A stretch of 64,000 bases of DNA from a virus (taxonomy: Duplodnaviria > Heunggongvirae > Uroviricota > Caudoviricetes): IMG/VR virus record IMGVR_UViG_2718218172_000010, one strand, 5' to 3'. Shown one piece after another: positions 12,001 to 18,000 of the stretch (its first letter is position 1; each line of letters starts with the position of its first letter). The position numbers were made by a program.

Positions 12001-15000
12001 TCGTTACTGCATGCCGGGCGGTAATTTACCAGCAGAGCCGAAAGCGGCATCGGTAGCGGAAACTGATGGTAAAGCCTTTCCTCAGCCTGCATGTGTTGCG
12101 TTACCAGTACAGGAGGCTGCAACACAGGAAGATATTAAAACAGAAACTGTGGCAGACATTGTGCAGCCGCTTGAGAAGCGAGTGGATAATCTGGTTCTGC
12201 CATCGCTGCGACAGGCAAACCGCGAACTGCGTCGGGCGAAAAGTGATATCCGGAAATGGGAGCGAGTCTGCGCCGCGCTGCGGGAGCTGAATAAATATCG
12301 CGATATTGTCGCCCAGCTTTGCCAGGAGGCAACCAGTGAGCAAGATTGACTATCAGGCACTGCGTGGGGCGGCAGAAGCAATAAAAATAGCAGCCACACC
12401 ACAAAAATTGCTGGCATTTCGTATGAAAGTCACACCTCAGGTTGTGCTGGAACTGCTGGATGAACTGGAAATTAAAAGCAAACGAATTAACGAGTTAATC
12501 AAGGGTGGTGAAAACGCCAAATACGTGACTGAAATTTTCCGACTTGAGAAAGAACGCATGGCGCTGGCAGCGGAGAATGCGGCGCTTAAACAGTCGGAGA
12601 AGGAATTTAATAACTTCTGTCGTCAGGAGTACTACGGTTGGGAGGACAACTTCACGGAAACCCCAGCCACCGATGCTTTCCTGGCTGAAGTACGGGCGGT
12701 GGCGTTTGACGAACTTCGCGCGGCGTTTGTCAGGCACGTAAAAGTTGCAGGACTGGATGAGGCCGATACCGTAACGCTTAAGGAAGTGACAGAAGCATTG
12801 TTGCATTGTGCGGAACAGATTCGCGCGCCTGAATAATTAAATTTAGTGTTGTAAATAAAATTTAATCCTTAACCGGAGGGATTTCTGCACCCTCAGAACA
12901 TCAGGAGGCCGCCCGAAAGGGCGGTAATGAAATGCGAAAGTTCAAAATAATTATTGAAACGGGAATAGCTGGTGGAGATTTTGAGGATGTATTCGAAGTG
13001 GATGATGATGCGACACCAGATGAAATACAGGACGAAGCAAAAGAAATTTTCTTTAACTACTGCAATTACTCATATCACGAAATAAAAGACGAGGAGGAAG
13101 AATAAAATGGCTGATTTTGGTTCAACTAAATACAACGTCAGTTTTGAAGAATGGCATGAACTGTTAATGGACTATGCAGAGTTACGCGGTGGAAGTGCCG
13201 CTGATGCTGAAGCATGGCGTGATGACTACGAAGCAGGAAAAACTCCGGTCGAAGCATATTGTGATGAGTGGGGCGATGAATGAGCGAGATTAATTATCAG
13301 GAAGGACATGAAACGGCAGGGCAGGCAAAACCAGTTGCATGGCGATATCGCTACGTGAAAAAAGGCGTTACGGACTCTCAGGGGGAGCCGTGGGTTGGTG
13401 ACTGGAAATATGTACCGACAAAAGAGGATTGCAACGACAGGCCGAGCTATGAAATTCAGGCGTTATTCACTGCCCCGCCTGTGCCACTGACACCAGAAGG
13501 ATTGATTAAAGCAGTGCGCTTCTATGAACAGGTAAAGTGTGAGAATCCGCCAGCTGAAACCGGAGCATGGAAGGACGCTATTGACTGGGTACTCAAGGAG
13601 GCCTGCCTGGTTGTAAACACTGGCATCAAAGGAGGCTGAATGGGTATTGCTGCAAGTTACACCATGCATCTCTACTGTGATTGTCGCCAGTGTACGGATG
13701 GCAAATATCAGTCGCCAGACTTTGGTGAGTATATCGGTACGTCATGGGCTGGCTGTGCAAAAGAGGCACGTAAAGATGGGTGGCGAATAAGCGCCGACAA
13801 AACGCGTGCTTTTGCGCCAGGGCATAAAATTTTGAGGAGCAACAAAGGAGAGTGATATGCCTACATTATTCAGAAAAGAATATCCGCGAAAAAGTAGAGC
13901 GACAGAATTTTTGTTTCTCATTCTGTTTATCGTGTTGATGATACCGATATCCCCGCTATTACTGGCCTGGATAATCGGAAAAGTAATTGAGCCAGTTATT
14001 GAATTGTATAACGACGTGGTATGGGCCTCGTTCAACACACTGCACAATAAAATTAATCCGTATAAGGAAAACTGAAATGACTTTTACCGAAAAAGAAATG
14101 ATTAAAGAAATCAAAGAGCGCATAGGCAGCCTGGACGTGCGAGACAATATTGAGCGCCGGGCTTATGAAATTGCTCTGGCATCGCTGGAAGCAGAGCCGG
14201 TGCTTTATATGAATCGATTTACCGGAAAGACATTCTCACTGGAAGGGCAACCAGGAGCAGACAAGGAACCGGAAATATACGTGCCGCTATACGCTGCTCC
14301 GCCAGCGCCGGTAGTGCCGGAATTTGAAACATGGTTTAACAGCCAGGAGTCAGGGAGGAGTATATGCAGCACACAGATTCGTCGCTCCCTTCAGGAAATC
14401 TCATGGAACGCCTGCTGCGCCGCCATGCTTCAGGGGAAAGGCGATGGTATCCTCACCAATGAGGATACCAAAGGGGACGTTCAGGTACGGGAATTAACAA
14501 TGCTGATTAAACAACTGGCTAGCCAATTGAGGAAAGTGAAGCCGAACTGCAAATTACCGGATAAGGCGATGAGTTATCTGGAGCGGAACGGACTGATAAG
14601 CGTGGAGGATATTTTACGATGACCTGGCCTGAAGCATTCACAACGGTAGGAATTGCGATGGCGGTGGCGCTGGTGGTGTATTCGATTTGCCGATGGGGAT
14701 AAAAACGGTTTGCGGGAAAAGGAGAGTTAAGTAGAATTGCTGCGGGTGCTTGAGGCTATCTGCCTCAGGCATGAACACCAAAAGGCAGATAGAGAAAAGC
14801 CCCAGTTAACATTACGCGTCCTGCAAGACGCTTAACATTAATCTGAGGCCCAATCTATGTCTCACAAATGTAGGTTAGCCTCTTACGTGCCGAAAGGCAA
14901 GGAGAAGCAGGCTATGAAGCAGCAAAAGGCGATGTTAATCGCCCTGATCGTCATCTGTTTAACCGTCATAGTGACGGCACTGGTAACGAGGAAAGACCTC

Positions 15001-18000
15001 TGCGAGGTACGAATCCGAACCGGCCAGACGGAGGTCGCTGTCTTCACAGCTTACGAACCTGAGGAGTAAGAGACCCGGCGGGGGAGAAATCCCTCGCCAC
15101 CTCTGATGTGTCAGGCATCCTCAACGCACCCGCACTTAACCCGCTTCGGCGGGTTTTTTGTTTTTTTTCAGTGAGTTTGTTCCGTCTGCCTGTACTGGTG
15201 TGGGGGGGGCTAATTTTGTTATTCAGGTGGCTTATTGCTGTTGATCGGTATGTCTTCACGGCTAGAATCGAGGCTCTTAAGTAGCGCGCAGGGATAAGAG
15301 GGATGGACCCTGAGAAGGGGAGAGCTATTTATCTGGAAGGATTCTGAAGATGAAAATCGAAGAATTGCGTGAAATTTTTAGTGAAAATGGCCTCTATGCT
15401 GTGCGCGTTGAGAATGGGAAAGTTGTCTACACAACGTTAATTCCTGATGATCATGTGATTTTATCTATCGAGGCATTCATTGAATACCTGGAAAGGCTCG
15501 GTTTCAAGGTGGTTCGGGAATGAGTTATAATTCGTAAGCCAGCCTGAACAACTGGCAACCTACAGCGCCATTGGAGATAACAATGGCGCATATACAACTG
15601 GTCAAACAAACTTCTTCTGGTTTACTTCTCCCGGCGACGCCGGAGAGTTGCGATTTTTTGCATCAAATAAAAATAGGTGAGTGGATACACGCAGACTTTA
15701 AGCGTGTGCGTAACTACGCATTCCACAAGCGTTTTTTCAAACTCCTGCAACTGGGATTCGATTACTGGACTCCGATCGGTGGGGCGATCACTCCTCGCGA
15801 ACGAAAACTGGTGTCCGGTTTCGTTGATTATCTGTGCGAATCAGTAGGCCGGGAACATACGCCAGCTCTGAGCGAAGCCGCAGAGCAATATCTGAATACA
15901 GTTGCGACACGCAGAACCCGGGATACGGCATTGCTAAAGTCGTTTGAGGCTTTCCGCGAGTGGGTAACCATTCAGGCCGGATTTTACACCGAGCATATTT
16001 ATCCGGACGGTAGCCGCGGGCGTCGGGCGAAATCCATCGCGTTTGCGAATATGGACGAAACCGAGTTTCAGCAGGTTTATAAATCTGTGCTGAATGTGCT
16101 GTGGAACTGGATCCTGTTCCGTAAATTTTCCTCTCCGGAACAAGTCGAAAATGTGGCCGCGCAGCTACTGGAGTTTGCGTAATGGTGAATTTACGTAAAG
16201 CGGCGCGGGGCCAGATGTGCCAGGTCAGAATCCCTGGCTACTGCAATCACAATCCCGAAACGTCTGTGCTGGCGCATTACCGACTGGCGGGAACGTGCGG
16301 AACAGCGATAAAGCCACACGATATGCAGGCAGCGATTGCTTGTAGCTCGTGCCACGATTTAATCGACGGGCGGGTAAAAAACAGCGATTACACCAAAGAA
16401 GAATTACGCCTGATGCATGCAGAAGGTGTTTTTCGCACACAAGAAATCTGGAGAAAGGAGGGATATTTATGATTTACCCAACGAATACAGGAAAAAGCGG
16501 AGAACACCTTCGTCTCAACACGCTGGAAAGTGTCTGGATTCAGGGAAAACTACGTATGTGGGGGCGCTGGTCGTATATTGGCGGCGGTAGGTCAGGGAAT
16601 ATGTTCAATCAGTTGCTGGCGTCAAAAAAGTTGACGAAAACAGCCATCAATGAAGCCCTGTTTAGAATGAAAAAAGCGGGAATAGAGAAACCTGAACTGG
16701 AATCATTTTTGCGAGAAATTATCAATGGCAAACAAAAGAGCTGGCTGGTGCATTGTACTGATGCCGAGGCGCTATGCATTGATCGGGTGATTAGTGAAGT
16801 GCTGGCAGATCATCCGGGGTTGATTTGTATCCTCCAGCAGCGGTATGAAGGACGGGGGATGACTAAGCGCAAAATGGCTGAATTGCTGAATGATGCACAC
16901 CCAGAGTGGTGTTTTAGCACATGTGAAAAGCGAATTGCTAATTGGTTGGCTGTTGCTGAGTATGCGCTATACATTCCCATGCGAGAATCACTTGCTCAAA
17001 AAATAGCTTGATTTTTTACGCACAAACTGCTTCAATTTCGCTACGCTTCGCAAAGCTGTATCGCGAGGTGAGTCTGCGCAGGAACTTTAATAGAACCCGC
17101 CTTCGAGCGGGTTTTGTTTTATTCATACGTCCGTAGTATACACTTCTGATTATATTTTCACATTCTGACTGTTCCTGTTAAATAAAGATTGTATTAATTT
17201 TAATATTTTGTTGAATACATGGTGTTTCTTATTTAATTAGCGCGGGATGTGATGGTGGTATGTTTCTGGTTAATTAAATGAGTAAATAGATGTCAGCTAA
17301 CCATGGAGGACAGCAACTCTCTGATTGACTTTTAATTATTTCTTAGATTTATTTTGATGGAGGCGTTGCTATTATTTTTAAGTAAGAGGTGAAATATTGT
17401 GTTGAAAATATTTATATTGTTTCTCATTTCTTTCTCATGGTATGCGAATGCTACGGATTTTGTTTATAGAGTGGATTCTCGCCCTCCAGAGGAAATATTT
17501 CGTGATGGATTTAGATCTCATGGTTTTAACAGAAATTTACAGCAACATTTAAGAGGAGACTCATGTGCGGCAGGAAGTAGGGATAGTGCATTTATTGCGA
17601 CCACAACCAGTTTAATTGAAACATATAACATAGCCAGGCAATATTATTCAAGTTCTGGATTTCATGGTAGATTATATCGTTACCGTATCAGGGCAAATAA
17701 TATTTTTTATCCTATTCAACCGTCAGTCAATTATCTAACCCAGCGCGGTGTAACCTTTTCTGGATTTGAGCGGATAATGATGCGAGAGCAGAACGAAATT
17801 GTCGCAGTTGAACATATCCCTAGTGAGAATATTGTTGAGGCAGTGGAGTTGACTTATGACAGATTCAACAGTCAAGTATCTGATGGACCCGGAACCACCA
17901 ATGCCAGGTATGTTCCTGGATCCACATTTGTAAATCCAGGTGTTATACCTCAATTAGTTGTACCAACTGTGTCAGTTAGAGAAAGAATCAATGCATTTGG

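Follow-up and report, generated by a model that had tools for sequence, protein, structure and literature searches.

A 64,000-nucleotide (nt) stretch of virus DNA (IMG/VR virus record IMGVR_UViG_2718218172_000010, Caudoviricetes; the whole stretch is called the window below) was analysed around a hok-family toxin locus that had been pointed out in an earlier note on the same sequence. Within a lambdoid prophage of a porcine Escherichia coli, the early-right, nin-like operon very probably contains, at 14710-15168, an intact type I toxin-antitoxin cassette (hok/mok/sok) of the hokD/hokW type, and the short open reading frame (ORF) directly upstream, of 27 codons, is read with the same high confidence as a separate gene. 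By every sequence-level test available, the hok gene appeared to be under full regulation, with Sok, the Sok promoter, the translational activator element (tac), the fold-back inhibitory element (fbi) and the Shine-Dalgarno (SD) sequence of mok all present. The cassette itself is an ordinary, already-known element, as the same sequence is annotated in RefSeq and a 93%-identical relative has been characterised experimentally. The coordinates of all features are given in Table 1.

The toxin gene showed a complete match to the Pfam family HOK_GEF (PF01848) with 82.9 bits (cutoff 22) over profile positions 1-42 of 42, and a match to PHROG 251 'MokW-like host killing' with an E value of 2.8e-33. 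Both the protein and the coding DNA were 100% identical to HokD of E. coli K-12 (HOKD_ECOLI), which agrees with the HokD/RelF type assigned in the earlier note. The SD of hok was AAGGAG (14899-14904). A mok-like frame overlapping hok had also been proposed and was indeed found, with its own SD (GAGG, 14846-14849) 7 nt before the mok ATG; the frame was, however, not a shifted one but an in-frame N-terminal extension of hok, as mokW and hokW are annotated in phage 933W. The mok product was identical to MokW of 933W at 63 of 70 amino acids (aa) (64 of 71 when the stop codon is included), and the exact 70-aa sequence was found on approximately 1000 contigs in public data. Both marks of the Hok/Gef family, a toxin of about 50 aa with a Hok/Gef domain, which comprises a transmembrane helix at the N-terminus and a conserved tail in the periplasm, and an upstream overlapping mok frame with an SD of its own, where regulation acts in this family, were present. 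Toxicity of this Hok and its neutralisation by Sok would be expected from the hokW-sokW system, whose Hok shares 47 of 51 aa (PMC8621323).

The leader of the hok mRNA was recognised by the Rfam 'sok' model (RF01794), which combines conserved sequence and structure, at 14744-14919 with 121.7 bits against a gathering threshold of 59 and over model positions 1-157 of 157. This was the scan for Hok and Sok RNA elements that the earlier note had suggested. The putative hok promoter was read from the sequence, and its -10 element lies 6 nt before the mRNA start, and in its register to the GG(C/G)(U)GCUUGAGG start it corresponds to TATGAT of the R1-type locus. At the other end, homology blocks in other loci stopped at 15158-15179 and the strong terminator noticed earlier behind hok was recovered by the terminator scan. 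The full-length RNA from 14744 to the terminator had a minimum free energy (MFE) of -173.4 kcal/mol (z = -6.9 against shuffles), and in both the MFE and the centroid folds the tac-fbi helix closed the whole molecule, so the long-range pairing of the 5' and 3' ends was present in the predicted folds. In a 3'-shortened RNA (14744-15116) folded in silico, a 5' hairpin of GUGCUUGAGGC and GCCUCAGGCAU appeared in place of tac-fbi. The GCCUCAGGCAU segment beside tac would be ucb-like, and the predicted switch from tac/fbi to tac/ucb matches the description of R1 (PMC9841398). The state of the mok SD in single-sequence folds did not map cleanly, one to one, onto the R1 scheme. Across 81 distinct hokD/W-type mRNAs, which came from IMG/VR, 933W and the window and were chosen for identical Hok protein, the tac-fbi pairs varied from G-C to G-U only and several internal helices showed two-sided compensatory changes. 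A candidate match of Rfam isrK to the 3' untranslated region (UTR) of hok (15078-15159, plus strand; 30.5 bits, threshold 50) was rejected, as the IsrK locus is organised differently and the likeness consists of two generic hairpins only. This sub-threshold match covers both the hairpin in the 3' UTR and the hok terminator.

The antisense RNA was located by carrying over the annotation of sokW from 933W, and it was complementary to the SD and start region of mok. Its predicted fold consisted of a single-stranded 5' tail of 14 nt, a long hairpin and a UUUU end (-29.2 kcal/mol, z = -5.3), a predicted shape which is the classical Sok form. The sequence was identical to sokW at 64 of 71 nt, and six of the seven differences fell in the 5' tail. 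The earlier note could not delineate a sok promoter by eye; through homology one was found on the minus strand, where it lies within the reading frame of mok and also within dcb. Both of its hexamers and its spacer were identical to those of the sokW promoter, with a single base change at -2, and its position matched that of TTGCGC-17-TATCCT in the R1-type locus. In hokW-sokW, replacement of the sokW -10 element TAACCT by GAGCCG (the 'pro-less' construct, mutagenesis primer YO-421) abolished antitoxin activity and unmasked the toxicity of HokW (PMC8621323). A promoter of its own, a 5' tail, a terminator hairpin and complementarity to the mok initiation region, as expected of a cis-encoded Sok, were all found at the sequence level. 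The question whether this hok is regulated, which had been left open, was at that level resolved in favour of full regulation. The earlier note had named a lack of regulatory RNA features together with a broken hok in homologues as evidence that would count against its proposal, and this combination was not found.

The Sok target was the part of the cassette that varied most. Among the 81 mRNAs, the mok SD and start region that is the target of the Sok 5' tail (window 14845-14865) was by a wide margin the most variable segment, a 21-nt stretch with a mean column entropy of 0.65 compared to 0.02-0.35 elsewhere. This suggests that the target specificity of Sok may have diversified between hok/sok copies which share a genome. 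A variable Sok 5' tail and target in otherwise conserved cassettes bears on the cross-talk among the several hok/sok copies per genome.

Table 1. Features of the hok/mok/sok cassette and of the adjoining 27-codon ORF (positions in the window).
Feature	Position	Strand	Basis
27-codon ORF (MTWPEAFTTVGIAMAVALVVYSICRWG), single-transmembrane microprotein gene (predicted)	14619..14702 (stop 14700-14702)	+	ORF call, homologue alignment
Putative hok promoter: -35 TTGCGG 14710-14715, 16-nt spacer, -10 TAGAAT 14732-14737	14710..14737	+	Read from sequence, inferred
Full-length hok mRNA (predicted), about 415-425 nt; 5' end GGGUGCUUGAGG, 3' end at the T-run of the terminator	14744..15168	+	RF01794 start, fold, ends of homology blocks
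tac (translational activator element), 12 nt, GGGUGCUUGAGG	14744..14755	+	Folds; conserved with R1; definitions from PMC9841398
Sok antisense RNA gene, 71 nt	14795..14865	-	933W sokW annotation carried over through alignment
mok reading frame, 70 aa	14857..15069	+	N-terminal extension of hok, same frame
Sok promoter: -35 TTGCCT 14900..14895, 17-nt spacer, -10 TAACCT 14877..14872	14872..14900	-	Homology with 933W
hok toxin gene, 51 aa	14914..15069	+	Pfam PF01848, PHROG 251, identity to K-12 HokD
fbi (fold-back inhibitory element), CCUCAACGCACCC	15119..15131	+	12 bp with tac, one bulged C
Intrinsic terminator: AACCCGC-TTCG-GCGGGTT stem (7 bp, 15138-15155), then T6-G-T8 to 15168	15138..15168	+	Terminator scan

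Directly upstream of the cassette, the hydrophobic peptide ORF noticed in the earlier note was present and encodes a predicted single transmembrane helix; the peptide as written out there was correct with its 27 residues, while the start had been placed at 14622 instead of 14619 and the length given as 26 aa. The ORF is preceded by a GGAGG SD (14604-14608) and its ATG overlaps the stop codon of the upstream ORF (ATGA). With a strong, exposed SD and a start that overlaps the upstream stop, the ORF appears to be operon-coupled. The hydrophobic core of the peptide (residues 7-23) lies between E/D5 and R25, and the product is therefore predicted to be a single-pass membrane microprotein. A survey of 5426 complete E. 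coli genomes placed the ORF in 1615 of them (approximately 30%), at 3068 places, plasmids of about 100 kb included. The exact peptide was present on 79 GenBank contigs, where it was named only 'hypothetical' or 'bacteriophage protein'. A contig scan for the peptide returned Escherichia and Shigella, and otherwise tiny contigs of Segatella, Acinetobacter and Xanthomonas which are probably contamination.

The ORF was annotated in none of the eight annotated records that were inspected. Its 84 nt are apparently below the length limit commonly used as default by gene callers, which would be why the gene was missed. Searches with the peptide gave no match in Pfam, a best PHROG E value of 0.019, a best NCBIfam hit (KdpF) with an E value of 0.024, below the cutoff, and no PADLOC match. 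A full-text literature search by peptide sequence and the supplements of a Sakai small-gene study (PMC5597208) and of an Enterobacteriaceae microproteome preprint (PMC11188072) showed no mention of it. The ORF did not fit the pattern of a type I toxin gene, in which a hydrophobic peptide is expressed from a promoter of its own and an overlapping or adjacent antisense RNA represses its translation: the peptide is hydrophobic, but the SD is strong and exposed, the start is coupled to the gene upstream, and no RNA family or promoter-like site was found over the ORF. A fusion with DUF551 was considered when the peptide clustered with DUF551 proteins of 121 and 185 aa, and was rejected: those proteins end in ...PQEVNQ without the peptide, and the clustering was artefactual, caused by partial calls at the edges of contigs.

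Several points weigh against reading the locus as a working, fully regulated cassette. The RF01794 match has the sense orientation of hok and stops at the AUG of the toxin gene, so that the model recognises the leader of the hok mRNA and not the antisense transcript. The Sok 5' tail differs from that of sokW at six positions, although the target co-varies because Sok is cis-encoded. The Sok -10 element fits the sigma-70 consensus at only three of six positions, and a sigma-70 consensus scan of 14500-15400 picked up neither that promoter nor the one of hok and gave a single site, at 15241-15268, which is outside the locus; both promoters were placed by homology. The PADLOC scan had no model that matched Hok or its neighbours. 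The tac sequence belonged to the selection pattern of the 81 mRNAs, so that its invariance is partly built in, and the single-sequence folds are predictions. Finally, every functional statement on the locus of the window is carried over from homologues. A rival reading is a decayed, unregulated or silent hok relic of the kind found in K-12, where hokD follows relBE without Sok or mok: the coding sequence of K-12 hokD is exactly the one seen here, with nothing of what lies upstream of window position 14900, and three of 82 related loci carry the same truncation. Nevertheless, a relic is extremely unlikely here. The leader is whole over the full length of the Rfam model, mok and hok are both open, the Sok promoter is identical to the functional sokW promoter in both hexamers and in the spacer, and the tac-fbi pairing is intact. 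In the other 79 of the 82 related loci, moreover, the homology reaches 14736 or farther upstream and so spans the whole leader. An intact cassette is therefore the reading kept here.

For the 27-codon ORF, a chance frame in a conserved non-coding spacer would account for a sequence below gene-caller length that is unannotated in eight of eight records, belongs to no Pfam, NCBIfam or PHROG family and left no trace in the texts and supplements searched. Its homologues argue otherwise and make a chance frame very unlikely. In a nucleotide-based census that did not demand the ORF, 117 of 123 homologous segments were intact. There were 19 peptide variants and 41 nucleotide variants, every one of exactly 27 codons, down to approximately 60% aa identity. 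Variable sites among the 41 nucleotide sequences were distributed 15, 11 and 23 over the three codon positions, so that third-position changes dominated, and the pooled pN/pS was 0.23. Residues M1, W3, P4, A6, G11, A15, Y21, S22, R25 and W26 were invariant in an alignment of seven peptide variants. An SD-like motif preceded 114 of the 117 copies, and the ATGA or a close overlap of start and stop was kept with several unrelated upstream genes. The ORF is thus probably a real, expressed microprotein gene with a function of its own. As a best guess, by analogy with other microproteins of bacteria and phages, the peptide may modulate a membrane protein or process and be expressed with the early phage genes.

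Whether this gene belongs to the toxin cassette was judged from the company it keeps. It could be a functional part of it, either as a leader peptide that controls transcription or translation of hok or as a protein that partners Hok or gives immunity to it: the 933W homology begins exactly at the ATG of the ORF, roughly one in two copies of this variant of the peptide precedes hok, both products are single-pass membrane peptides and the hokW-sokW plasmid of PMC8621323 starts at the same ATG. Such a role is nonetheless highly improbable. Among 82 loci with identical Hok, the left edges of homology fell into discrete classes at 14491, 14619, 14697-14702, 14724-14736 and 14900; most of these cassettes lack the ORF and their homology starts at 14697-14736, just past its stop codon. 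The small ORF was upstream of hok in only 15 of 80 IMG/VR loci. Conversely, 42 of 83 copies of the identical peptide had no hok downstream, and five more divergent variants (BP-4795, two of PhiR12 type, Av-05 and one other) had none nearby; these stand in other operons and in one case in a virulent phage. The ORF also ends before the hok promoter, and the hok loci of R1 and of the K-12 chromosome work without it. By these breakpoints, the 27-codon ORF looks to be an independent, separately mobile module, the last gene of the upstream block, which happens to abut the cassette. It is also very improbable that, where the two adjoin, the peptide acts with Hok at the membrane, for example in tuning depolarisation or lysis timing or in immunity, and so adds a third component, at the level of protein, to some hok/sok loci of prophages.

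Settings of the ORF without hok were found in BP-4795, PhiR12_5, Av-05, ArgO145 and 666R9. Variants of 63-67% identity in BP-4795 and PhiR12_5 lie between an Ea22/DUF551 gene and a DUF4222 gene, beside xis and int. The virulent Vequintavirinae phage Av-05 carries a copy of 81% identity, and in ArgO145 and 666R9 the ORF closes an operon which faces convergent genes. The forward primer used for cloning hokW-sokW, YO-432 (GAATCA-ATGACCTGGCCTGAAGC; PMC8621323), starts at the ATG of the 27-codon ORF of 933W (locus L001, 2501-2584). The published pBAD18-hokW-sokW therefore carries the ORF downstream of the arabinose-inducible PBAD, which is unmentioned in PMC8621323. A widespread, conserved and largely unannotated gene of coliphages for a 27-aa membrane peptide is the one mildly new item of this analysis and a reasonable candidate for small-protein study.

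The mechanism proposed for the cassette was drawn by homology from hok/sok of plasmid R1, which was taken as established, and from hokW-sokW, with the phenotype of prophage Sp5 as the guide to function. The weak promoter would produce a stable hok mRNA of about 420 nt in which tac at the 5' end pairs with fbi at the 3' end, so that the RNA is locked, untranslatable and not bound by Sok. Slow trimming of the 3' end would remove fbi, the 5' end would refold onto the ucb-like segment and the ribosome-binding site of mok would be exposed. As long as the DNA is present and transcribed, the short and unstable Sok, made from the opposite-strand promoter inside mok, would pair with the mok SD and start region, which would block translation of mok and hence of hok, and the duplex would be degraded. 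When the supply of Sok ends, Mok and Hok would be translated and Hok would damage the inner membrane.

In the prophage, induction is most likely the physiological trigger, to judge from the relatives: in the experiments on hokW-sokW, Sok RNA was lost, Hok appeared, and both lysis and phage release were brought forward. The cassette has the same orientation as the early-right operon, and the stretch from 14500 to the cassette showed no terminator-like site (the scan covered 14500-15400; the operon farther upstream was not scanned). With a co-directional cassette and no such site from 14500 on, strong rightward transcription after induction would meet the Sok promoter head-on and would also yield read-through RNAs that contain hok, so that less Sok and more Hok would be made. 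The 933W cassette, however, lies at the other end of its prophage, and the induction effect may for this reason not transfer to the window. In 933W (AF125520), int (29-1363, minus strand) is at the attL end, and hokW with L0139-L0142 is on the minus strand at the attR end, within 58460-61095. With this placement, leftward read-through (from PL through int) would reach hokW only after excision joins the ends, and such post-excision read-through may explain why production of HokW in 933W needs induction. Prophage retention and the exclusion of other phages are possible further roles, by analogy.

A query of 801 nt centred on the cassette (window 14500-15300) was 100% identical to the chromosome of the porcine E. 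coli strain cq9, where PGAP (RefSeq) labels the copy of hok as hokD. Among 5426 complete E. coli genomes, 4744 contained matches to the query, and the median number of places in a genome was two. Upstream of the cassette were, in order, a repressor/cro-like pair, YdaU/YdaV-type replication genes and ead/Ea22-like and other small genes. Downstream, all of them plus-strand genes, were a rem-like ORF, DUF1367, DUF1364/YbcO, DUF1133 (a Q-like antiterminator), an AB5 toxin pair and lysis genes. This order, which runs from replication genes to a Q-like antiterminator, indicates a lambdoid prophage and makes 'nin-like region', as the locus had been called at first sight, a fair label.

Other features of the window and of related records were recorded as follows. 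The replication-initiator-like ORF (9702-10832, plus strand) is one continuous frame of 376 codons, and PGAP splits the identical cq9 sequence into two partial pseudogenes, one of the YdaU family. The AB5-type toxin pair (17399-18124 and 18192-18617, plus strand) lies between the Q-like gene (DUF1133) and the holins, in the slot that stx takes in Stx phages; in the identical cq9 sequence the two genes are annotated as 'scabin-related ADP-ribosyltransferase' and 'subtilase family AB5 toxin binding subunit'. Rfam RalA (RF02694) matched 1557-1735 (plus strand) with 215.4 bits (threshold 170). In Rac-like prophages, RalA serves as the antitoxin RNA of a type I system, RalR/RalA, and the match therefore points to a second type I toxin-antitoxin locus in the window. 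Rfam sRNA-Xcc1 (RF02221) matched 40115-40200 (minus strand) with 72.5 bits (threshold 53). The ORF 3' of the hok terminator (15350-15523, plus strand) is rem-like (PHROG 340). The Qin prophage of K-12 shares the leader of this ORF, about 85 nt long (15266-15349), while about 60 nt (about 15205-15265) are missing from K-12, and the promoter-like TTGATC-16-TAGAAT at 15241-15268 spans the edge of this gap. In the record PP818812.1 ('Actinobacillus phage vB_Apl-pPE4'; locus L177), positions 1501-2163 were 99.8% identical to this E. coli prophage segment, with the surrounding gene order in common, and Actinobacillus pleuropneumoniae looks a doubtful assignment as host of this phage.

In comparison with known loci, the cassette has the same order and register of promoter -10, tac, mok ATG, dcb/Sok promoter, hok SD, fbi and terminator as the prototype hok/sok (parB) of plasmid R1, and the two belong to the same Pfam and Rfam families. 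The logic of R1, namely an inert full-length RNA, 3' processing with refolding, and pairing with Sok (PMC9841398), would be that of the window. R1 hok/sok is known for post-segregational killing and exclusion of T4-type phages, as cited in PMC8621323. The differences are that the window cassette resides on a prophage instead of a plasmid, that it has the longer Sok hairpin, in which about 16 nt form a segment absent from the Rfam consensus, and that its tac-fbi helix has 12 bp whereas R1 has the shorter GGCGCUU/AAGCGCC. The toxins of the HokD/W type are about 44% identical to R1 Hok (PMC8621323; the figure is given for HokW).

The closest characterised relative was hokW-mokW-sokW of the Stx2 phage 933W and the Sakai prophage Sp5 (AF125520), with 93% DNA identity over window 14619-15141. 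The in-frame mok, the 71-nt antisense Sok and the Sok promoter hexamers and spacer are shared, the tac and fbi sequences are identical, and the 27-codon ORF is likewise directly upstream. The four substitutions between Hok and HokW (47 of 51 aa identical) are all in the C-terminal tail. Within the first 16 nt of Sok, six differ from sokW and the target changes to match, so that the Sok of the window and sokW may not cross-react. In 933W the strong terminator hairpin of the window is missing, because the homology ends at 15141, and the cassette is at the attR end in b-region orientation and not in an early-right nin-like operon. HokW was shown to be toxic by Takada et al. 2021 (PMC8621323), and sokW neutralised it, partly via RNase III and Hfq. 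After treatment with mitomycin C, sokW RNA vanished and HokW accumulated in the inner membrane, for which RecA was required, and deletion of hokW-sokW delayed growth arrest by approximately 40 min and halved phage release (PMC8621323).

The comparison with hokD (relF) in the cryptic prophage Qin of K-12 is of another kind. From window position 14900 on, the K-12 DNA was identical save for one base (15111), which covers the hok SD, coding sequence, 3' UTR, fbi and terminator; the two loci also share the flanking rem-like gene, and the neighbourhood is syntenic. Everything upstream of 14900 is replaced by relBE in K-12, which is therefore without the hok promoter, tac, the mok start and Sok, the Sok -10 element being missing. 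On this alignment K-12 hokD is a truncated copy of the locus, and the window has the complete form. Unlike the textbook K-12 hokD, the copy in the window carries the full regulatory apparatus, and it would show how the ancestral Qin-type locus looked.

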